Source: an uncultured Gemmataceae bacterium (GTDB lineage Bacteria; Planctomycetota; Planctomycetia; Gemmatales; Gemmataceae). From it: DNA of 64,000 bases. The translations under genes and the position numbers were made by a program. The stretch spans positions 1,184,001-1,248,000 of the forward strand of contig CAVVPN010000012.1 of the NCBI GenBank assembly GCA_963750165.1. Reading direction: 5' to 3'. Below the pieces are notes generated by a model, which saw nothing but the letters and a program-made list of their open reading frames with translations, had not been told where the DNA came from and ran no database searches. Positions 14,261 to 25,770 of this stretch are shown here, piece by piece; the first letter of the stretch is position 1, and each line of letters starts with the position of its first letter.

Positions 14261-14388
14261 GAAGAAAGCTCACGCAAAGGCGCAAAGACGCAAAGAGTCG
14301 CAAAAGGGAATTGAAAAAAGACGACTACCGTGTTCTTGTAATTCGGTATTTCCTTGCGCCTCTTGGCGCCTTTGCGTGAGCTTTCTTC
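14261..14388. repeat. REP-like inverted repeat pair (23-bp arms)
   Basis: GAAGAAAGCTCACGCAAAGGCGC at 14261 and its reverse complement ending at 14388. Confidence 0.85.
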
Positions 14389-14408
14389 CTTTTCTTCAGA
14401 GACTGCCG

Positions 14409-15993
14409 ATGGACGAACTGCTCGCCGAGCTGCGCCGCCAGGAAGCCAAAATCAAGGAGGGCGGCGGCAAATCCGCCAGCGACCGCCAGCACGCCAAGGG
14501 CCGCCTCACCGCCCGCGAGCGCATCGCCAACTTGCTCGACCCCGGCACGGACCTGTTCGAACTGGGCCTGTGGGCCGCGTGGGGCATGTACCAGGACTGG
14601 GGCGGCGCACCGGCGGCGGGCGTCGTCACCGGCGTCGGCAGTGTCGGCGGCCGCCGCGTCATGGTCATCGCCAACGACGCCACCGTGAAAGCCGGCGCCT
14701 TCTTCCCCATGACCGCCAAGAAGGTGCTCCGCGCCCAGCGCATCGCCCTGGACAACCGCCTGCCGCTCGTCTACCTCGTCGATTCCGCCGGCGTCTTCCT
14801 GCCGCTGCAGGACGAGGTGTTCCCCGATGAGGACGACTTCGGCCGCATCTTCCGCAACAACGCGGTGCTCTCCGCCGCGGGCGTGCCGCAGTTCGCGGCC
14901 ATCCTCGGCAACTGCGTCGCCGGCGGCGGCTACCTGCCGGTGCTGTGCGACCAGCTGCTCATGACCGAGGGCAGCGGCCTGTACCTCGCCGGGCCGGCGC
15001 TGGTCAAGCGCCGCCATCGGTCAGAGCGTCGAGAGTGAGGAACTGGGCGGCGCCAAGATGCACAGCAGCATCAGCGGCACCGTCGATTACCGCGAGCCGG
15101 ACGACCCCGCCTGCCTGACGCGCCTGCGCCGCCTGGTCGAATTGCTGGCCGCCGACGTGCCGCGCGTCGCTTTCGACATCCCGACCGCCCGGCCAGCCGC
15201 GGACCTGCTGCACTACTGCGACCGCGCCGGTCGTCAGGAGTACGATGTGCGCGACGTGCTGGCGTGTCTGCTGGACGCGGCGCCGTTCGACGAGTACAAG
15301 GCCGAATATGGTCAAACGCTGGTGTGCGGCTTCGGCCGGCTGGGCGGCGTGCCGGTCGGCGTCGTGGCCAACCAGCGCCAGCGTTGCAAGCCGGCGGCGG
15401 GGCCGTTGCAGTTCGGCGGCGTCATCTACGTCGATAGCGCCGACAAGGCGGCGCGCTTCATCATGGACTGCAACCAGACACGGGTGCCGCTGCTGTTCCT
15501 GCAGGACGTGAACGGCTTCATGGTCGGCCGCGACTCGGAGCAGGCCGGCATCATCCGCGCCGGCGCCAAGCTGGTGAACGTCATCGCCAACAGCGTGGTG
15601 CCCAAGATCACACTGATCCTGGGCGGCTCGTTCGGCGCCGGCAACTACGCTCTGTGTGGCAAGGCGTTCGACCCGCGTTTCATCCTGGCGTGGCCCACGG
15701 CGAAGTACGCGGTCATGGGTGCGGACCAGGCGGCGGGCACGCTGCTGGACATCACCGTCAGCGCGCTGAAGCGCGGCGGCCACGAGCCGGACGCGGCGGA
15801 GTTGCAGGAGCTGCGCGACAGGGTGACGGCGGCGTACCAGGAGCAGACGGACGTGCGCTACGCGGCGGCGCGGTTGTGGGTCGATGGCGTCGTGGAGCCA
15901 ACCGCCACGCGGCCGGCGCTGCTGACGGCGCTGGCGGTGGCGCTGCGGTACGATGAGGGCCGGCCGTTTCGGACGGGCGTGCTGCAAGTGTAG
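14409..15993 (+). CDS. Acyl-CoA carboxylase carboxyltransferase (beta) subunit, MCC/PCC family (frameshift near 15010)
   Basis: GRLTARERI, ANDATVKAG, LVDSAG, GNCVAGGGY; removing one base restores LVKAAIGQSVESEELGGAKMH; QDVNGFMVG, GSFGAGNYALCG. Confidence 0.92.
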
Positions 15994-16164: not shown

Positions 16165-16908
16165 TCACACCTGGGCTGCGGAAGCCGTGCCGGCCGTGAG
16201 GCCGATCTGTTGGGCCGGGAGATGCGCTTGTGCTTCGGGGCTCCCAAGGATGGCCGCCTCCACTTGGGTGTCCGTCATGTCCCCAGACGTCAGATGCTGT
16301 ACCCACAAGGTCACTCCCTTTTCCTCCGGGGAAGGGGCACGGCCCAGGTAGAGGCGATACCACAGCGTCACCCGTTCGAGCGGGGTCATGGAAGCCATAC
16401 CGACTGTGTTGCCGTTCCGTGGGGCCGGGAGAAGCGCTTGTGCTTCCTGGACCTGCACGTCGCGGAAGTGCAATTTCACTTCCCATCCGTTGCTGAGCAG
16501 AATCGACCAGGACCAGATAGGCGGTTCGCCGGGGATCAGTTCCAGTTCATCATACTGCCATTCCACCACGCTGCCTGTGGAACGAAACTGCAGGGGCAAG
16601 TCGGTCGGGTTGATTTTGGGTTCGTTCACCAGGTCGAAGGTAAGCGTCACCAAAGGTTGCGGCGGCGAATCCAGCTGTAACACGATGACAAAGGAATGCC
16701 CCTGTTTGCCCAGGCCCCGAACCTTGGCGTCATGGAGTTGATAACTTTCTTCAATGTGCCTCAAACCCGAGGGCATTTTCCCCTTAATCGAGTCAAAGTA
16801 ATGGCCATAACTATCGCAGGCGCAGTCCCATTCCTCCTGGGCGGCGTTGGCAATGGCATCGTCTTTGGAGCCGAAGCGGACGAGCAGGTCAGGCGTAAAG
16901 TATTTCAT
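16165..16908 (-). CDS. Hypothetical protein (MKYFT...) with a short C-terminal DUF4214-like helical segment
   Basis: Clean 247-aa ORF with AT-richer codons; LHDAKV and WQYDELE motifs; WYRLYLGRAPSPEE...ILGSPEA segment. Confidence 0.7.
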   Translation of the reverse strand: MKYFTPDLLVRFGSKDDAIANAAQEEWDCACDSYGHYFDSIKGKMPSGLRHIEESYQLHDAKVRGLGKQGHSFVIVLQLDSPPQPLVTLTFDLVNEPKINPTDLPLQFRSTGSVVEWQYDELELIPGEPPIWSWSILLSNGWEVKLHFRDVQVQEAQALLPAPRNGNTVGMASMTPLERVTLWYRLYLGRAPSPEEKGVTLWVQHLTSGDMTDTQVEAAILGSPEAQAHLPAQQIGLTAGTASAAQV

Positions 16909-17285
16909 TTTTTCTTCCTCGCCTTGCGCTTGTCGGTTTCGTAAAAGGTGTGCCCGTCCGGTTCCCGCGACTCCTGGTGGTAGTGCGGTAAAGCGTGCGG
17001 CCCGGCGCGCCGCTCGGGCGGCTGCGGCGGTGTGCGCGGCCCGACGGCGGCTTCAATTTGGCCAGCAAGTCGCCGATTCGCGGCCAGATCCTCCCCGCAA
17101 ACCACAACATCTTCGGCAACAATCCGCCGCGCCACCGCGTCCTTGAAGCTGAGTTCCTGGCCCCGCTCCACAAGGCCGGAAGGGCCGGAGACTCTTTCCG
17201 CCGCGTGGATTGTTGGCGAGGGCGTCTTCGGTTGCTCCTGAGACGGCGCTGCTTCGGGGGGCGCTTCGTTTGGCTCGGCAGCCAT
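16905..17285 (-). CDS. Hypothetical protein with PHYH...GHTFY motif
   Basis: GAGG RBS and ATG; stop overlaps the start of the next gene (ATGA). Confidence 0.65.
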   Translation of the reverse strand: MAAEPNEAPPEAAPSQEQPKTPSPTIHAAERVSGPSGLVERGQELSFKDAVARRIVAEDVVVCGEDLAANRRLAGQIEAAVGPRTPPQPPERRAGPHALPHYHQESREPDGHTFYETDKRKARKKK

Positions 17286-17289
17286 TGGT

Positions 17290-17507
17290 TCATCTTACCT
17301 CATCCCTGATGGTTCCCATGATCCCGCGCTGCCGCCGCAGTTCCTCCATGCGCCGCTTGATCTCCGCCTGGTAGCCACGCTCCAACGGCTCATAATACCG
17401 CACGGGACGCTCCGCCGTGGACCGCACGCCCACCTCCAGCGCCGTCAGCGCCCGCCGTGCGTCGCCGTCGCTCAACTGCGCCAGCACGTCCAGCGCCTCC
17501 TCCGTTT
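17290..17507 (-). pseudogene. rarA: Internally deleted remnant of replication-associated recombination protein RarA/MgsA
   Basis: EEALDVLAQLSDGDARRALTALE (AAA+ lid region) joined directly to YYEPLERGYQAEIKRRMEE (C-terminal motif). Confidence 0.7.
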
Positions 17508-17648: not shown

Positions 17649-17678
17649 TTGACGAGGCGAGAATGTCGCGCCTACACT
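17649..17678 (+). promoter_or_regulatory. Putative sigma70 promoter of the radical SAM operon
   Basis: TTGACG-N18-TACACT. Confidence 0.5.
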
Positions 17679-17748: not shown

Positions 17749-18455
17749 ATGGCGAGCGACCACGACCTGAATTCGCTGTCGCGCTTCCGCAAACAGTCCG
17801 GGCGGTTGGTCCTGGAAGAGCACAGCCACTGCGAGATACCGGCCGGCTGCGGCGGCGTTGTGCTGCGCTGGCGCAACCCATTCGCCGCTGTGCCGCTCCG
17901 GCTCCACCTCTACGCGCCAGTCCCCGCCGCCTGCTTCCTCGACGGGGCCGAGGTGCAAAACGGTCGCGTGGACCTCGCTCTCGGACGGCACGCCGTCGCC
18001 CTTGCCCTGGAGGACACGGACCTGTCCGGCGGCCTGATCCTGTTTGCGGCCGTCCACCCCGAGACGCGCTCGGAGCGCAATCCGCCGGCCCTGGTGACCG
18101 ACGCCCCGCTGCGGGTGCTGACGGCCGACGACGGCACCTGGAAATGTACCCTCCAGCGGCCGGAAACCGACGAGTGGAAGACGCCCACCTTCGACGACCG
18201 CGACTGGGTCGTCCTGACGGGGGCGCCGAAGCCGCGGCTCGCCTCCGGCGCCCGGGCGCCTACCAGTGCGACGAGTGTGTCCGCCTGGGGGCCGTCTGCC
18301 TCCGACTACCGGCACCGGCTCCCGCGGCGGAACGGGGCTCGTTGTGGCAGCTGCTGGGGTTGTGGCGAGGCCCGCAGGCGCCCCCGGTGATGGGCAGCGT
18401 CTGGATCCGCAAAGTCTTTGACATCCCACCGCCCCAAACCCGTGCGTCGTCGTGA
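17749..18455 (+). CDS. Hypothetical protein with EEHSHCEIPAGCGG motif (frameshift near 18250)
   Basis: ORF 17749-18390 loses coding character near 18250; the alternative frame gives YQCDECVRLGAVCL...GSVWIRKVFDIP ending at 18455. Confidence 0.75.
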
Positions 18456-18492
18456 CGCACGGCTGGGGGCGGATCGACCCAGGACGACCCGC

Positions 18493-19838
18493 ATGACCAC
18501 CTCGCGTAACCCGCTGACCCTGGTCCCGCAGTATTTCGGCTGCCTTGTCTTCGACCGGCGCACGTCGCGCTACCTGCCGTTCGACCACGAGGCGACTGCC
18601 CTGCTGCGCGCGCTCCACGGCCGGCCGATTGACGCCGTCCTCGCCGATTACCCCGGCGAAGACGAGCGCGCCGCGGTCGAACGGTTCTTCGCCTGTTTTT
18701 ACGAGCGCGGCTTCTTTCGCCTGGACGGACGGTTGGCGGCGGACCTCCTCGACGTGGACGTGCCCGCGGACCACCTGGTCGGGCCGCTGGCGGTCCACCT
18801 GGAGGTCGTGGGCGCCTGCAACCTGACCTGCACCCACTGCTTCGCGGGCACGCTGCCGCGCAACCACCAGCCGCTGACCGTCGCCGAGATGGACCGCCTG
18901 TTCGGCGAGCTGGCCCGGCTCGGGTCGTTTCGGCTGGGCCTCACCGGCGGCGAACCGCTGCTGCGCAAGGACCTGGGCGACATCCTCGACGCGGCCACCG
19001 GGCACGGCCTGCACCCCTGCTTGACGACGAACGGCCTGCTGCTCACCGAGGAGATCGCCCGCCAGCTGGGCCGTCGCGACCTCGTCTGGATCAACGTGAG
19101 CCTCGAAGGCCCGGACGCCGAGACGAACGACGCCGTCCGCGGGCCGGGGACGTTCGCGGCCGTGCTGGAGAACCTGAAAGTCCTCCGCCGGCACGCGCGC
19201 TTCACCCTGGCCTTCACGGTCCTGCGCACGAACGCCCACCTCGTCAACCGCTGCGCCGAACTGGCCTATCGCGTCGGCGCCCACACCGCCGTGTTCCGGC
19301 CGCTCTACCCGGCCGGCGTCGCTCTCGAACACCTCGACCTGATGCCGAGTTTCAGCCAGTACAGCCACGCCCTGCACGAACTGGCGGACATGGCGAGCCC
19401 GGGGGCGGACCTGCGCGGCCTCGATCCGTTCGGCCCGGACAGCCGGGCCGCCACGCAGCCGCGCATCCACACCAGCCACACTTGCGGGGCGGGCCAGCAC
19501 GTCTGTTCCGTCTCAGTGCAGGGCGAGGTCAGCCCGTGCAGTTTCCTCGGCCCCGCCTTCCATACCGGCAACGTCCGCGCCACGCCCTTCGCGGTCCTCT
19601 GGCGCACTGGCCAGCAGTTCCGGCGGCTGCGCGAACCGTCGGCGGGCGGCTTCTCGGGCGGCTGCCGGGCGCGGCGCAGGCGCTCGCGGGCTCCGCGGAC
19701 GCGCCCGACCCGTGGTTCGAGGAGTATCTGGCCGGCGCCGCGCCGCACCCCGGGGCCAACGTCGAGGCGGCGGCCGCCTTCCCGCGGGCGCTGCCGGTTC
19801 GGTCCGCCGCGCCGGAGGAGGCGAGCCATGCTCCCTGA
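18493..19838 (+). CDS. Radical SAM enzyme with N-terminal RRE/PqqD-like region and SPASM/Twitch domain (frameshift near 19675)
   Basis: CNLTCTHC, TGGEPL, TTNG, CGAGQHVCSVSVQGEVSPC, GGCRA; C-terminus AQALAGSADAPDPW lies in a shifted frame. Confidence 0.9.
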
Positions 19839-20957
19839 GAAGTACCGCTGGATCGGCGTGCAGTTCGAGCCGGGAGAGGGCGACCCCGACCTGTTGCTGG
19901 CGGTCGCCGAGGAGCTGGAGGACGAGGGCAACCGGGCGGGGGCCGCGCAGGTGCTCGACCGGGCGTTTGGCATCGCCCCGGCGCACGAGGCGGTGCGACG
20001 GGCGCGGCGCGCGTCCTGGACAGCCTGGCGGTGGTCGAGCACGGCCTGACATTCCGCTACATCCCGGGCGGCGTGTTCCTGATGGGCTGCGACACACGCG
20101 AGCAAGATGAGCGCCCCTGGCACCCGGTATGGCTGGCGCCGTACTGGATGTCGGAGACGCCGGTCAGCTGGGAGGCGTACTGCCGGCTCATGGGCTGGGA
20201 GGCGCCGCCGGGCGGTTATCCGCGGGACCGTGAGCCGGCGCCGGGTGATTTCGACCGCCCGCTCTTTCATCTGTACAACGCGAACAAAATTCGCCTGCAA
20301 TACTGCGAGGACCGTACAACGCAGGCCGGCGACTGGCACGCCCACGCCCCGGGGCAGATGTGGCAGACGGGCGGCCAGACCCAGTCCGCTCAGGAGTTGT
20401 TCGGCACGCCGCCGCGCGACGAGCCCGACGCACCGTGGCGGTACGACACCAAGCCGATGATTGCGGTCGCCTGGCAGGATGTCGAGGACCTGGCCGCCCG
20501 CCTGTCCACCGACCGGGTGCGCTACGGCTGTCCGACCGAGGCGCAGTGGGAGAAGGCCGCCCGCGGCGGCCTGATCGGCGCCCGCTACGCCTGGGGCGAC
20601 GAGCCGCCGACCCCCGACTGCTGCGACTTTGACCACTTCGGCGACTTTTCGATCCGCCCGATGACGACCTTTCCGCCCAACGGCTACGGGCTGTACGCGG
20701 TCAACGGCGGTGTCTGGGAGTGGACGCGCGACTGGTACGACCGCGACTACTACCGGCACTCCCCCGAGGAGGACCCGGAGGGGCAGGAGAAGGGGCAGGA
20801 GAAGGTGTTGCGCGGCGGCTCCTGGGCGGACTGTGCCGACGCGGTCACGGTGACCTTCCGCATGTCGCGCGGCTCCCGCAGCTGGACGGAGGGCGAGTGG
20901 AGCGAGCACCTGGCGCCGAACATTGGTTTCCGGCTGTGCCGGACGGTCGTCGGCTGA
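19828..20957 (+). CDS. Formylglycine-generating-enzyme (SUMF1/FGE-sulfatase) fold protein (frameshift near 20010)
   Basis: GGAGG RBS; IPGGVFLMG, PTEAQWEKAARGG, PNGYGLY, GVWEW, VLRGGSW, NIGFR. Confidence 0.88.
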
Positions 20958-20973: not shown

Positions 20974-22986
20974 TTACGGGGCGGCCGCGGCGGTCGCCGG
21001 CTCGGCGCTCTTCCAGGACTCGGACGGCGTCACCAGCGGCAGCAGGCCGGCGCACTGGCTGGCCAGAAACGCGCGGGCCGCGGCGGCGCCCGCGCCGGGC
21101 ACCTGCGCCGCCACGGCCTCGTGCCACCCGGCGGCCGCGGCCAGCTGCCAGGCCTGTCCATCGCTCAGACTGCGCAGGCTGGCCCGCGCCGGCCGCAGCT
21201 TGTCCCAGACCTGCTTCGTCAGGGGCGGCAACTCCCGGTGCGCCGGCGCCAGCCACAGCACGATCATGGCGTCCGCCGGACGGGCGGGCTCGGCCAGCGG
21301 CGCAAGCCGGGCTTCCAGTTCCGTGGGCAACGCCCGGCCGGTCGTGAGCAACAGGCCGACGGCCACGCGCGCGGGCCGCCCCAGGGCGCCGTCGTCGGTC
21401 ACCCGCTGCCAGTCCACCGCGGTGACCAGAGCGTAATCGCGGTGCGGATCCTTGGTCACCACCACCTCGGCGCCCGCCAGCCGCCAGCCGTCGCGGGTGA
21501 CCGCCCCGGCCGCCTGCAGCACCTGACACAACCCCTCGTTGAGCTTCCCTCCCAGGCTCGAGAGCCCGACGTTCTGGGCTACCTGCTCCGCCGCGCGCAC
21601 GCGCTCTTGCCAGAGGCGCCGCAGCAGCGTGTCCGGGTCGGTCGCCGTCGCCAGCGCTGGCGGCGCCGACGACGGCACTGGCGGTTTGACCGCCGGCGTC
21701 GGTGCATGCCCGTGGACGATACGGTCGTACTCCTCGCGCAGCCGCTGCAAGCGCGTCCGCAGCGGCACGTCCGCCATCTGCTCGACCGCGGCCAGGTCGG
21801 CGTCCGTGAACGGGAACAGCCGCGGCAGTTGATCGGCCGCCGCAAAGCCCCGCAGTGTCCGCGCGACGCGGTGCTCGACCAGCGTGCGGAGCGCCGCCGG
21901 CGCCGGCGCTCCGAGGTACACGACATCCACCACGCCGTGGCCGGGCACGGACACGCCCTGATCCAGGCGGCTCAGGGCGAACGGGTGCCCCAGCGTGCGC
22001 AGCGCCCGGTACACCTCGCTCTCGGCGAACACCAGGAAGAGCAGGCTGCGCGTCGCGTCCACCGCCTGGGCCAGGCCGTCGAGGAAGGCACGCACGCGCT
22101 CCGGGCTGAGTTCGCCCTGCGGTGCCAGCAGCCCCTCCAGGTTGTCGTAGGCGAAGACGACCGGCAACCGCACCAGGGCGCACACCTCGACCAGGGCGAG
22201 CAGCAGCTGGCGGGCCGCCACGCTGCGGAAGGACGGCCGCGCACCGCCAGGGCCGGCATCGGTTTCCACAAACGTCCCGAGCGGGTCGGCCTCGTCCAGC
22301 AAAGCCGCCCGAACCAGTGCCATCAGCAGCCGCCGGCGCACCACGCCCGCCGCTTCCTTTTCCCAGCGCTGCAGATCATCGGCGATGCGCTCGACCGCCG
22401 CAGCCGGCGTGAGCCCGTGAGTCTGGGCGAGCGCCGCCGGATCCTCGACCGCCGACGGCGCGTCCGGGGCGGATACGCCCAGGACGCGGCGCAGCAGCCG
22501 GGCGGTCAGGTTGGCGGCGATGTCGCGCAATGGCGGCCGGCCGGAAGGCGTGCCCTCGGCGCGAAGGGCCGCGATCAGGTGGCCGACCAGTGCCTCATCA
22601 AGGGGCACTTCCGGTTCAAAAAAGGTGGGCTGGATCAGCAGCTGGAGCGCGTCGTCGCGGTGCGCCAGTGCCTCCAGCAGATGGGTCTTGCCGGCGCCGC
22701 GCGGCCCGACCACGGCGACCACACGGCTGTCGGCCAGGCCGCTGCCGGGGTGATACGCCTTCAGGCGGTACGTCTGCGGCCGATACACGTCCATCGTCGC
22801 GGTGAGTTTCTGGTATTCGGCCTGGTGAATGCTGGGCTCGTGGTGATCGAGGAAGTGCTCGTCGGGCCGCTGCGGCCGCACCAGACCGTCAAACGGGTTG
22901 GGCTGGCCGCGCAGCCAGTCGCGGGCCTGGTCGGTCAGGGCCGGGCCGGGCTGTGCGATGTCAGGGGAGATCGACATAAATATCAC
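20974..22986 (-). CDS. P-loop/AAA+-type ATPase, hypothetical
   Basis: Walker A GPRGAGKT, Walker B VFAYDNLE, N-terminal NPF motif. Confidence 0.75.
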   Translation of the reverse strand: MIFMSISPDIAQPGPALTDQARDWLRGQPNPFDGLVRPQRPDEHFLDHHEPSIHQAEYQKLTATMDVYRPQTYRLKAYHPGSGLADSRVVAVVGPRGAGKTHLLEALAHRDDALQLLIQPTFFEPEVPLDEALVGHLIAALRAEGTPSGRPPLRDIAANLTARLLRRVLGVSAPDAPSAVEDPAALAQTHGLTPAAAVERIADDLQRWEKEAAGVVRRRLLMALVRAALLDEADPLGTFVETDAGPGGARPSFRSVAARQLLLALVEVCALVRLPVVFAYDNLEGLLAPQGELSPERVRAFLDGLAQAVDATRSLLFLVFAESEVYRALRTLGHPFALSRLDQGVSVPGHGVVDVVYLGAPAPAALRTLVEHRVARTLRGFAAADQLPRLFPFTDADLAAVEQMADVPLRTRLQRLREEYDRIVHGHAPTPAVKPPVPSSAPPALATATDPDTLLRRLWQERVRAAEQVAQNVGLSSLGGKLNEGLCQVLQAAGAVTRDGWRLAGAEVVVTKDPHRDYALVTAVDWQRVTDDGALGRPARVAVGLLLTTGRALPTELEARLAPLAEPARPADAMIVLWLAPAHRELPPLTKQVWDKLRPARASLRSLSDGQAWQLAAAAGWHEAVAAQVPGAGAAAARAFLASQCAGLLPLVTPSESWKSAEPATAAAAP

Positions 22987-23280: not shown

Positions 23281-24294
23281 ATGTGGTCAGTTGGCGATCG
23301 GGTGTTGGGGAAGCGGCCGGAGGAGCCGTTCTGGTATCCGGGCACGGTCAAACACAGCGACGGCACGCGCTATTTCGTGCTGTTCGACGACGGTGAGGAC
23401 GCGCTGCTGCCGGCGGCGGAGCTGGCGCGGCTGGAGTGGCAGGCGGGCGACCGCGTGTTCGTGCGGGCGGCGACGAGTCGGGCCTACACTGCAGCCACGG
23501 TCAGCGGCAAGGACGGCGATGCGCTGCAGGTGCGCTTCGACGATGGCCGGCAGGAGTGGACCTCGGCGGCGCGGTTGCGCGTCGATCCGGCGGCGCGGCG
23601 GCCGGCGCTGGCGGAGGAGGAAGCGGCGCCGCAGTGGACGCCGGGCGACGCGGTGCTGGCGTGCGGGCCGGATTCGTTCTGGTATCCCGGCGCCGTGCTG
23701 GCGCTGCGCGGCCGTCAGGTGCATGTGGTGCTCGACGACGGCAACCAGTTGCTGGCGGAGCCCGGCCAGTTGCGGAAGCTGACGGTCGAGATCGGCGACG
23801 CGGTGCAGGGACGCTGGCAGGGCGGCCCGGAGTTTTTCCCCGGCGAGGTCACACGGCGGGACGGCCAGGTGGTCCAGATCCGCTACGAAGATGGTGACGA
23901 GGAGGTGACGCTGCTGCGGTTGCTGCGCCTGGACCGCGACGACTGGCTGCCGGGCGAGATGAACTGGTCGGAGGGCGATCGAGTGCTGGGCCAGTGGCTG
24001 GACACCTGCTGGTACCCGGGGGTGGTGCTGGCGGTGAACGGCAAGCGCTTGCAGGTGCTGTTCGACGACGGCGATCAGGCGCTGCTGTCCGCGGCCAAGC
24101 TCAAGCGGCTGAGCGTGCAGGTGGGCGACCGCGTCGCCTGCCGGCGCGGCGGCGGCCAGATTTTCTACCCCGGTGAGGTCGCGGAAAAGCGCGGCGAGAC
24201 CATCCGCGTCCACTACGACGACGGCCAGGAAGAGACGACCACCGTTCGCCTGCTGCGCGTGGAGCCCGAGGGGATGCGCGAAGGGATGGAGTGA
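23281..24294 (+). CDS. Tandem Tudor/Agenet-like repeat protein (six units)
   Basis: AAGGAGG RBS; six ~55-aa units of GD.V...(W/F/Y)YPG.V...V.(F/Y)DDG. Confidence 0.85.
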   Translation: MWSVGDRVLGKRPEEPFWYPGTVKHSDGTRYFVLFDDGEDALLPAAELARLEWQAGDRVFVRAATSRAYTAATVSGKDGDALQVRFDDGRQEWTSAARLRVDPAARRPALAEEEAAPQWTPGDAVLACGPDSFWYPGAVLALRGRQVHVVLDDGNQLLAEPGQLRKLTVEIGDAVQGRWQGGPEFFPGEVTRRDGQVVQIRYEDGDEEVTLLRLLRLDRDDWLPGEMNWSEGDRVLGQWLDTCWYPGVVLAVNGKRLQVLFDDGDQALLSAAKLKRLSVQVGDRVACRRGGGQIFYPGEVAEKRGETIRVHYDDGQEETTTVRLLRVEPEGMREGME

Positions 24295-24414: not shown

Positions 24415-25770
24415 ATGAACCTGTGTCTGCCCGAGCTGGCGCTGGTGCTGCTGGTCGGCCCGTCGGGGTCCGGCAAGTCCACGTTCGCGCGCCGTCACTT
24501 CAAGCCGACCGAGGTGATGTCCTCCGACTTCTTCCGGGGCCTGGTGCGCGACGACGAGAACGACCAGTCCGCCAGCCGTGACGCCTTCGACGCGCTGCAC
24601 CTGGTGGCGGCGCGACGGCTGGCGGCCGGCCGGCTCACCGTCATCGACGCCACCAACCTCCAGGCTGAGGGTCGCAAGCCGCTGCTGATCCTGGCCAACA
24701 AATATCATGTGCCGCCGGTCGCTGTCGTCTTCGCCCTGGAGGAGGACGTTTGTCAGCGGCACAACCAGCAGCGTGCCGAGCGCGTTGTGCCGGTCACGGT
24801 GGTCAGCAACCACTGGCAACAACTGCAAACCGCCCTCGCCGCCCTGGGACGCGAACACTTCCAGCACGTCTACGTGTTACGCAGCCTCGAAGAGGTGGCC
24901 GCGGCCCGGGTCGAACGGCTGCCGCTGCCGGTGGATCGCCGCGCCGAGCACGGGCCTTTCGACGTGATCGGCGATGTGCACGGCTGCTTCGACGAACTGA
25001 TGCTGCTGTTGCAAAAGCTCGGCTACGAGGTGCATCCGCGGGAGCCGCCGCCGGACGGGGCTGGCTTCGCGGTGCGTGGGCCGGAGGGGCGCAAGGTGGT
25101 GTTCGTCGGCGATCTGGTGGACCGCGGCCCGCGGACGCCGGCGGCGCTGCGGCTGGTGATGAGCATGGCCCGCACCGGCCTGGCGCTGAGCGTGCGCGGC
25201 AACCACGACGACAAGCTGCTGCGCAAGCTGCAAGGCCGCGACGTAAGGTTGACGCACGGCCTGGCCGAGTCGCTGGAGCAACTGGGTCGGGAGCCGCCGG
25301 GCTTCCTGGACCGCGTCCGCGACTTTCTGGAGATGCTACCGAGCCATTACGTGCTGGACGGCGGCAAGCTGGTGGTGGCGCACGCGGGCATCAAGGAGGA
25401 GATGCAGGGCCGGATGTCGGAGCGAGTGCGTGTGTTCGCGCTGTTCGGCGACACGACCGGCGAGATGGCTGCGGACGGGCTGCCGGTGCGGCGCAACTGG
25501 GCGGCGGACTACCACGGCCGGGCGCTGGTGGTCTACGGTCACACGCCGGTGCTGGAGCCGATCCGCGTGCAGCGCACCGTCAATATCGACACCGGCTGCG
25601 TCTTCGGCGGCCAGCTGACCGCCCTGCGCTACCCGGAAATGGAGCCGGTGTCAGTGCCGGCGGCGCGGCAGTACTGCGCGCCGCACCGCCAGCTGCTGAC
25701 GAGTCTGGACGTGCCGACGCCGCTGCGCATCGGCTGGCGCCGGCCGGAGCGGATGCCGCCGGGGGCGTGA
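24415..25770 (+). CDS. Polynucleotide kinase-phosphatase-like protein (kinase + metallophosphoesterase, no ligase domain)
   Basis: GPSGSGKST, IDATN; GDVHG, GDLVDRG, GNHD, YGHTP, IDTGCVFGG. Confidence 0.9.
   Translation: MNLCLPELALVLLVGPSGSGKSTFARRHFKPTEVMSSDFFRGLVRDDENDQSASRDAFDALHLVAARRLAAGRLTVIDATNLQAEGRKPLLILANKYHVPPVAVVFALEEDVCQRHNQQRAERVVPVTVVSNHWQQLQTALAALGREHFQHVYVLRSLEEVAAARVERLPLPVDRRAEHGPFDVIGDVHGCFDELMLLLQKLGYEVHPREPPPDGAGFAVRGPEGRKVVFVGDLVDRGPRTPAALRLVMSMARTGLALSVRGNHDDKLLRKLQGRDVRLTHGLAESLEQLGREPPGFLDRVRDFLEMLPSHYVLDGGKLVVAHAGIKEEMQGRMSERVRVFALFGDTTGEMAADGLPVRRNWAADYHGRALVVYGHTPVLEPIRVQRTVNIDTGCVFGGQLTALRYPEMEPVSVPAARQYCAPHRQLLTSLDVPTPLRIGWRRPERMPPGA

Follow-up and report, generated by a model that had tools for sequence, protein, structure and literature searches.

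The cassette and its reading frames

The window analysed here is a stretch of 64,000 nucleotides from an uncultured Gemmataceae bacterium (GCA_963750165.1, contig CAVVPN010000012.1; G000:C12:1184001-1248000), taken from an assembly of 9.6 Mb in 12 contigs. At positions 17749-20957 the open reading frames (ORFs) define three genes in the same orientation, to which we refer as the cassette: gene 1 encodes an orphan protein, gene 2 a radical S-adenosylmethionine (rSAM) enzyme and gene 3 a protein with the fold of the formylglycine-generating enzyme (FGE). Positions of the main features are provided in Table 1. The closest named homologues are from Gemmataceae, which fits a planctomycete. Genes 1 and 2 are separated by 37 nt and genes 2 and 3 overlap by 11 nt, in agreement with an earlier note on this DNA that described three closely packed genes on one strand of which the last two overlap. 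Below we argue that the cassette is a candidate system for the modification of a folded protein.

Table 1. Features of the cassette (positions refer to the window; +, forward strand)
Feature	Positions	Strand	Basis
Sigma-70-like promoter candidate, TTGACG-18-TACACT, ~70 nt 5' of gene 1	17649..17678	+	Consensus scan
Gene 1, orphan protein of ~235 aa, likely substrate	17749..18455	+	ORFs, orthologue comparison; frameshift near 18255
Leader-like segment, N-S-L-x-R-F-x-K...L-E	17770..17817	+	Homologue alignment; low-confidence part of model
Core EEHSHCEIPAGCGG, E-x4-C-E-I-P-A-G-C-G-G, tip of predicted beta-hairpin, likely modification site	17815..17856	+	
Variable beta jelly-roll including WIRKVF tail	17881..18455	+	L011 model, VIA, hidden Markov models
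Gene 2, predicted RRE-rSAM enzyme with degenerate SPASM domain	18493..19838	+	Pfam, orthologues, model; frameshift near 19675
Predicted RRE, three strands and three helices	18493..18720	+	Orthologue model, structural and profile alignment
CxxxCxHC motif for the SAM cluster, CNLTCTHC	18817..18840	+	Sequence; 46/47 orthologues
Auxiliary-cluster region: AuxI-type Cys kept, AuxII CxxCx5C and terminal Cys absent	19483..19665	+	Orthologue alignment
Gene 3, short TPR-like helical N-terminus and FGE-fold domain	19828..20957	+	Pfam, orthologues; frameshift near 20010
Variable family insert in gene 3, KIRLQYCE..DWHAH	20286..20345	+	YCE-like 34/39, WHxH 26/39
RGGSWADC in gene 3	20811..20834	+	Alignment
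RRE, recognition element for RiPPs (peptides made on the ribosome and then modified post-translationally); AuxI and AuxII, first and second auxiliary cluster; TPR, tetratricopeptide repeat.

Each of the three genes carries one single-base frameshift (Table 1). In the orthologous loci L011 and L013 both halves of the rSAM gene and of gene 3 are covered in one frame, and in L011 the two halves of gene 1 are joined as well. No segment of the window genes contains an in-frame stop, dN/dS against locus L040 is roughly estimated at 0.1-0.4, and two of the three shifts are located in the same 11-mer, GGGCGCGGCGC. These observations favour long-read errors, which are probably the cause. Among control genes 3 of 18 are frameshifted, and for the cassette 3 shifts per approximately 1,060 codons compare with 0.49 expected (P ~0.014). 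Given this local rate above the background, a recent inactivation of the cassette, limited to the genome of the window, is possible.

Distribution of the cassette

Profile searches were run on 208 genomes of the window's family that are at least 80% complete, using thresholds that we set ourselves (gene 1, E <= 9e-34; rSAM, E <= 1e-40; gene 3, E <= 1e-60). Part of these genomes had contributed to the search profiles; the score gaps between true and weak matches are nonetheless wide. All three genes are present in an identical set of 13 genomes, and 12 of these keep the adjacent arrangement. In one genome (G457) the genes are dispersed over three contigs (L154, L165, L166), with open frames and unrelated neighbours. 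Weak gene 1 matches in 44 further genomes (E >= 1e-6) concern the jelly-roll part only and mostly long frames.

A close rSAM orthologue is found in 3 of 40 relatives, each with the same three-gene order. A scan of representative genomes yielded 19 rSAM-type loci: where the rSAM is at least 55% identical (eight loci, of which L021 duplicates L011) gene 1 always precedes it and the FGE-fold gene always follows, and where identity is 25-33% (11 loci) neither partner is present. By their records, the loci with the full order include Gemmatales, two Acidobacteriota, Actinomadura pelletieri, another actinomycete and Trebonia, and a cluster look-up adds Zavarzinella formosa, other Actinomadura and Spirillospora as members of the rSAM cluster. 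A locus recorded as Alcaligenaceae (L022) was left out of the phylum count because its rSAM is 73% identical to a Gemmatales rSAM. Judged by these comparisons, the cassette is real and conserved in at least three phyla, named cultured species included. Phylum-wide it is rare, with gene 1 matched in 6 of 401 genomes, two of them weakly.

Similar patterns are seen in metagenomes, for which we used the best 80 of 163 loci found by the gene 1 motif. The rSAM gene follows gene 1 in 68 of the 73 testable loci and the FGE-fold gene follows in 30 of 33. The co-occurrence on which the earlier note had made its proposal depend is thus found both in genomes and in metagenomes. In three of the five loci that miss the rSAM (L044, L074 and L094) a transposase-like frame comes immediately downstream. 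Of the other two, L042 and L072, the former is nearly identical to G457; in L062 the insertion is within the rSAM gene and the FGE-fold gene lies beyond it. Altogether, frames judged by eye to be transposase-like break up the cassette in 4 of the 80 loci (L044, L062, L074 and L094). This suggests that the cassette consists of dispensable accessory genes.

The surroundings were compared in 52 long loci (at least 6 kb or taken from genomes). No fourth gene recurs in these, apart from generic kinases (5 loci) and the neighbours shared by close kin. Likewise no protease, transporter, client enzyme, sulfatase, heme subunit or flavoprotein recurs, nor does any other leader-bearing gene. The gap between gene 1 and the rSAM gene is in most loci too small for a peptide gene; the gene 1 stop and the rSAM start overlap in 28 of 81 loci, and the two genes are often translationally coupled.

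Gene 1 combines a near-invariant loop with a predicted variable jelly-roll

Of 2,589 candidates 879 are homologous to gene 1, and a search with the first 45 residues finds matches in 359 clusters at 50% identity. No family of Pfam, NCBIfam or PADLOC covers the protein. Conservation is concentrated at the start of the protein: in 119 whole-protein hits 14 of the 15 invariant columns are located within residues 1-40, which follow the pattern N-S-L-x-R-F/Y-x-K...L-E-x4-C-E-V/I-P-A-G-C-G-G-V-V-L-R-W. The leader-like N-terminus ending in EEHSHCEIPAGCGG that had been noticed before is present, and the distance from the leader Asn to the first core Cys is 20 residues in 138 of 150 representatives. 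Both Cys, both Glu and P-A-G are kept in all 119 motif-bearing hits (of 120 in total) and likewise in all 10 loci that were selected by way of the rSAM. The earlier label of a Cys-His motif had to be dropped: His is found at position -3 in 98 and at position -1 in 108 of the 119 hits, so that the motif is better described as based on Cys and Glu. Mean column conservation amounts to 0.98 for the core against 0.38-0.43 for the body, while the strand behind the core (GGVVLRW) is near-invariant too.

In a model of the L011 protein the motif occupies the loop of a hairpin (strands 20-27 and 35-41), followed by a beta-sandwich. Leader and core are the least confidently folded part, with a pLDDT score (the predicted value of the local distance difference test) of 51-63 against mostly 93-97 for the sandwich. 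The structural comparison with VIA matches the sandwich to 3w5n with Z 7.9 (the caution line of the tool is 8), a root mean square deviation (rmsd) of 3.0 and 112 aligned residues. We take residues 167-298 of the chain to be domain D. The top five matches have Z scores of 6.3-7.9, the next one 4.2, and they cover model residues 42-171. Comparison of hidden Markov models agrees (E 3.8e-6 to 3w5m); Foldseek returned nothing at E <= 0.001. The last predicted strand (190-201) falls outside the range aligned by VIA, which suggests a strand order that is permuted relative to the rhamnosidase/lectin fold discussed below.

The jelly-roll is detected in 142 of the 150 representatives, the short ones appear to be fragments or frameshifts, and among all 150 we found no convincing stand-alone peptide form. 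One homologue of 381 aa (P0377) has a single leader and core and apparently two jelly-roll domains in tandem. A fusion of gene 1 to the rSAM was considered on the basis of a 657-aa read-through, one among four candidates; its gene 1 tail and C-terminus seem to be out of frame, and it was rejected as an assembly artefact.

These data bear on the question whether gene 1 is a precursor of the RiPP type, with the jelly-roll as a disposable carrier. The rSAM and a PvdO/EgtB-like gene 3 would then tailor the core, and host proteases would set free a small peptide or cofactor in the manner of mycofactocin or PQQ. A leader with a short invariant core, the predicted RRE, the fact that MftC is the best NCBIfam model for the rSAM and the poorly conserved body all fit such a precursor. 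However, no stand-alone form accompanies the near-constant jelly-roll, the strand directly after the core is itself near-invariant, and protease, transporter and client enzyme recur nowhere in the long loci. Gene 3 moreover stays below the NCBIfam cut-offs of PvdO, EgtB, SenA and OvoA (see below). We therefore regard a released product as unlikely.

The rSAM enzyme has a predicted RRE and a reduced SPASM domain

Of 8,000 sequences scored, 796 are homologous to the enzyme encoded by gene 2 at E <= 1e-60. Pfam Radical_SAM (PF04055) matches it with 89 bits against a cut-off of 29.5, and all 77 members tested; SPASM (PF13186) scores 27.6 bits against 21.5. The CxxxCxxC motif described from the sequence is located where expected (Table 1).

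The N-terminus of about 80 residues, which the earlier note had taken for an RRE, is predicted to be one. An orthologue model shows strands at 8-13, 16-21 and 26-30 and helices at 32-43, 46-52 and 56-70 (pLDDT 91-97). Its structural matches include the RRE part for SkfB (6EFN; Z 29.3, rmsd 3.5, 354 aligned residues, from residue 6) and SuiB (5V1T; Z 27-28, from residue 5); anSME, PqqE and CteB align only from approximately residue 90, leaving the RRE part outside. The family profile also aligns over the N-terminus of SkfB, and an ESM Atlas lead (score 0.90) belongs to a cluster in which 16% of the members carry PF05402.

The canonical SPASM domain is described as having a seven-Cys motif and two auxiliary clusters (PMC6231123). 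Here the CGAG..C..PC and GGC elements are seen and the CxxC block is missing, as had been noted. Three SPASM Cys are invariant in 47 of 47 full-length orthologues and the fourth is replaced by Ala in 8 of 47. The AuxII motif and terminal Cys are found in 3 of 47 orthologues and in none of the 120 closest homologues; the three with a complete CxxCx5CxGGC..C motif are L015/L120 (both from genome G233), L093 and L096. By that description, the domain reads as one reduced to AuxI. The three invariant Cys with a variable fourth recall the open AuxI site reported for the thioether-forming enzymes CteB and CrpC (PMC6231123, PMC13692751), so that in some members the site is perhaps open as well.

The loss of AuxII opens another view on gene 1, namely that of an accessory subunit whose C-x5-C-G-G loop ligates an Fe-S cluster or metal in trans, the substrate of the rSAM being elsewhere. 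Orthologues without these ligands are the rule (44 of 47, and all 120 closest homologues), the loop shares its C-x5-C spacing with the SPASM segment C-x2-C-x5-C-x3-C, and both genes are frequently coupled in translation. Nonetheless L015, L093 and L096, which have a complete AuxII, retain CEVPAGC unchanged, and the position of the would-be first ligand varies (His, Tyr, Phe, Gln). Compared as profiles, gene 1 and the rSAM show no homology (probability 0.3), and the RRE would be left without an evident client. Overall, this role for gene 1 seems quite unlikely.

The rSAM stays below the cut-off of each of the 25 best-listed NCBIfam families. MftC (TIGR03962) comes closest, with 143.7 and 158.6 against 265. 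Placement in a characterised cofactor family, which would have spoken against the earlier proposal, is thus not what we find. PADLOC gave no hit for genes 1 and 3, and for the rSAM only superfamily-level viperin hits over the SAM core.

Gene 3 encodes an FGE-fold protein without the catalytic Cys pair

Gene 3 matches Pfam FGE-sulfatase (PF03781) with 138.8 bits, and its top sequence hits in the PDB are FGEs (6MUJ, E 4.5e-42). In the alignment the CHDSYC of 6MUJ is replaced. None of 39 orthologues has the catalytic Cys pair behind RGGS, and 30 of 39 have a single Cys in RGGSWxxC; this bears out the earlier observation of an FGE-fold protein lacking the pair. The TPR-like N-terminus and the YCED..TQAGDWHAH insert, also reported before, are both seen. 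For the former TPR_14 is weak (E 0.002, below the cut-off; matched by 8 of 31 at E <= 0.05). Another segment, ahead of the PNIGFR motif, varies in length. NCBIfam cut-offs are unmet for EgtB (61 against 360), SenA (67 against 420), PvdO (48 against 500), OvoA (28 against 400) and GldK.

Since rSAM and FGE folds both serve the formation of formylglycine elsewhere, it might be argued that the rSAM oxidises a Cys to formylglycine in the way of anSME, gene 3 being the aerobic counterpart or a SUMF2-like binder. The PDB hits of gene 3 and the four AuxI-type Cys of 39 of 47 rSAM orthologues agree with this. The missing Cys pair does not. Structures of anSME hold two auxiliary clusters, and their alignment with the rSAM starts only at residue 97 and so leaves out the RRE. 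The sulfatase motif is C-x-P-x-R, from which the gene 1 core differs, and a sulfatase beside the cassette recurs in none of the long loci. A maturation role of this kind is very improbable.

The earlier note had proposed three substrates for the rSAM: the N-terminus of gene 1, the insert of gene 3 and a micro-ORF. Only the first survives. The note gives no coordinates for the micro-ORF; it is likely the only short ATG frame seen between genes 1 and 2 (18390-18455), which by inspection of translations and orthologues is the conserved WIRKVF tail of gene 1 brought out of frame, and it was rejected as a frameshift artefact. The insert is specific to the family and mostly has its Cys, but WHxH is missing in 13 of 39 orthologues, the Cys is absent from L013 and L158-L160, and gene 3 has no conserved leader. 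We consider it highly improbable that either of these two is the substrate.

A proposed function

RREs are described as binding leader sequences (PMC6231123, PMC10288494). The N-terminus of gene 1 is the only recurring leader-like sequence, and the two-Cys loop is found at a fixed distance from it; this makes gene 1 the likely substrate of the rSAM. The enzyme would grip the leader through its predicted RRE and then modify the adjoining C-E-V/I-P-A-G-C loop. If gene 1 is indeed the substrate, the odds are about even that the enzyme forms a C-S bond at AuxI and that the two Glu serve as acceptors. The invariant Cys, the retention of AuxI and the precedents for thioether formation by RRE-rSAM enzymes on proteins, QhpD/QhpC and CrpC/CrpA (PMC13692751), make cysteine thioether cross-links the most probable type of modification, and the tandem E-x4-C-E-x4-C suggests its Glu residues as preferred acceptors. 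In the NxxC family, the name of which implies a Cys downstream of the acceptor, the acceptor is given as Asn (PMC9389541).

The product is probably a protein that remains in the cytoplasm, as there is no recurring protease or exporter and the folded body is obligatory. A crude hydropathy check found no N-terminal hydrophobic or signal-like stretch in 88, 47 and 29 sequences of the three families. The jelly-roll would be retained as a scaffold, and the modified protein would act together with the FGE-fold protein. The latter is kept even when unlinked and lacks the FGE catalytic residues, which favours a binding partner or second subunit over an FGE-type oxidase. As to the peptide- or protein-modification operon of the earlier note, the protein side is thus favoured, with the jelly-roll in 142 of 150 and no recurring protease or transporter, and a released peptide is the less likely product; the evidence points to a folded protein as the target, and that it is modified we infer. 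For this reading as a whole, a modified gene 1 loop on a cytoplasmic protein working with the FGE-fold partner, we see a slightly better than even chance. A more specific version is a two-subunit enzyme, in which the rSAM would turn the hairpin tip, carried by a repurposed rhamnosidase-type lectin fold, into a metal site or a cofactor derived from the protein; placed inside the FGE-fold subunit, the tip would provide the catalytic Cys that are missing there. This version is rather unlikely.

Several observations weigh against the proposed function. The conserved N-terminus of gene 1 could be a binding surface instead of a substrate. Pfam PqqD (PF05402) matches 0 of 77 rSAM members at E <= 0.05, as a consequence of which the RRE call rests on models and profile alignment. 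In 39 of 47 orthologues all four AuxI-type Cys are retained, the pattern of the fully ligated anSME, so that an open site is no general feature of the family. Among named models the rSAM comes nearest to MftC and to enzymes of heme synthesis rather than to thioether formers (PapB scores 56-73 bits). In 9 of 148 representatives Gln, Arg or His stands in place of the upstream Glu, and in locus L120 (G233, a genome that is 59% complete) no FGE-fold gene adjoins gene 1 and the rSAM. The metagenome loci were selected by the core motif itself, and kin among them are non-independent (74 clusters at 90%, 55 at 60%). Finally, one genome (G346; L017/L119) keeps all three genes with a core that lacks the first Cys-Glu-x-Pro.

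In this G346 cassette (L017, 1483-3344; L119, 4595-7490) the rSAM deviates at 21 otherwise near-invariant columns; altered chemistry and decay are both possible. A complex prediction with three chains and two 4Fe-4S clusters, in which gene 1 was the partner, gave no clear answer, with a median of 0.35 (runs 0.35, 0.59 and 0.04), with controls at 0.01 and 0.00 when gene 1 was replaced and 0.84 when the rSAM was replaced, and counts neither way on binding.

Promoter candidate and neighbouring genes

The promoter scan gave 2 sites against 0.1 in shuffles, a consensus match that says nothing about function. Upstream of the cassette a carboxyltransferase-like gene (by eye; 14376-15993, +) is split over two frames, probably another assembly frameshift. 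It is followed by two genes of 126 and 247 aa with weak DUF4085/DUF4214 matches (16165-17285, -), which have an adjacent paralogous pair on contig C11. Just upstream of gene 1 lies a 65-aa remnant with a partial AAA_assoc_2 match (17290-17487, -), presumably RarA/MgsA-like and possibly the edge of an insertion.

On the other side a gene for a P-loop ATPase-like protein of 670 aa (20974-22986, -) converges on the cassette; it has a distant paralogue on contig C3, and its position beside the cassette is not conserved in the orthologous and the 52 long loci. Next come a 337-aa protein with repeated Tudor/Agenet-like domains (23281-24294, +), also with a paralogue on contig C3, and a frame (24415-25770, +) that matches positions 1-426 of 851 of the bacterial polynucleotide kinase-phosphatase TIGR04075, the remainder of the model being absent from this frame.

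Significance and comparison with known systems

Full-text and topic searches of the literature, with subscription journals outside their coverage, found no paper on the gene 1 core motif or on the gene set. The six accessions checked (two of them UniProt ids) are absent from the 14,550-row RRE-rSAM spreadsheet of PMC10288494. The cassette is apparently undescribed and would be a way of modifying a protein, in a field where validated enzymatic thioether cross-links on large protein substrates are called 'limited' (PMC13692751, 2026). The family seems to have been missed by peptide-centred mining: its RRE is invisible to Pfam PqqD, the candidate substrate counts about 200 aa and the accessions checked are missing from the list mentioned above. 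It has hundreds of members and amounts to a minimal system, in which three genes go with a single obvious target of two cysteines. The members also differ naturally in whether the second auxiliary cluster is kept and in the number of AuxI Cys (three or four), a series that bears on the role of SPASM clusters, and through the cassette a function may be assigned to one of the many FGE-fold proteins that lack the cysteines.

Several known systems share only a part with the cassette. Gene 3 has the fold signature of the FGE family (PF03781) but differs by the lack of the Cys pair, the TPR-like N-terminus, the insert and the variable segment before PNIGFR. Compared with anSME, the rSAM has a predicted RRE and mostly no AuxII, and no sulfatase recurs. 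The jelly-roll modelled for gene 1 resembles a non-catalytic, CBM67-like domain of GH78 rhamnosidases and a Pleurotus ostreatus lectin, at Z scores (6.3-7.9) that stay just under the caution line of VIA; in contrast to these, it is a stand-alone domain with leader and core in front. In SaRha78A, domain D is described as a calcium-dependent rhamnose-binding module (PMC4690510).

Among peptide-modifying systems SkfB, a sactisynthase, and SuiB provide the best full-length structural matches to the rSAM, RRE included, and SkfB has a single auxiliary cluster, as most orthologues here would. Identity is only 14-20%, however, both act on short peptides, and a peptidase/transporter is part of the streptide cluster. 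Sactipeptide and ranthipeptide pathways in general differ in that the motif of the cassette is on a protein of about 200 aa, with no recurring protease or transporter. MftC, of mycofactocin, is the best-scoring NCBIfam model, though at 144-159 against 265; the predicted RRE of the cassette is fused, and neither a small precursor nor pathway genes recur.

The closest parallels are found in the two precedents on proteins. In QhpD/QhpC an RRE-rSAM enzyme is reported to engage a leader and to cross-link Cys to Asp/Glu in an enzyme subunit (PMC13692751, PMC10114670, PMC11951088). The cassette differs from this system by the absence of recurring heme subunits, leader protease and flavoprotein in the long loci, by two core Cys on a lectin-like fold, by the FGE-fold partner and by an AuxII that is mostly lost. 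CrpC/CrpA of Methanococcus voltae is described as an RRE-rSAM-SPASM enzyme with a three-Cys AuxI that forms ranthionines on a protein encoded alongside; CrpC carries both of the auxiliary clusters, and its substrate CrpA is rich in Cys and has several motifs (PMC13692751), whereas in the cassette a single loop with two Cys is joined to a jelly-roll and the third gene is of the FGE fold. By analogy, the cassette likely works like QhpD/QhpC or CrpC/CrpA while being a member of neither.

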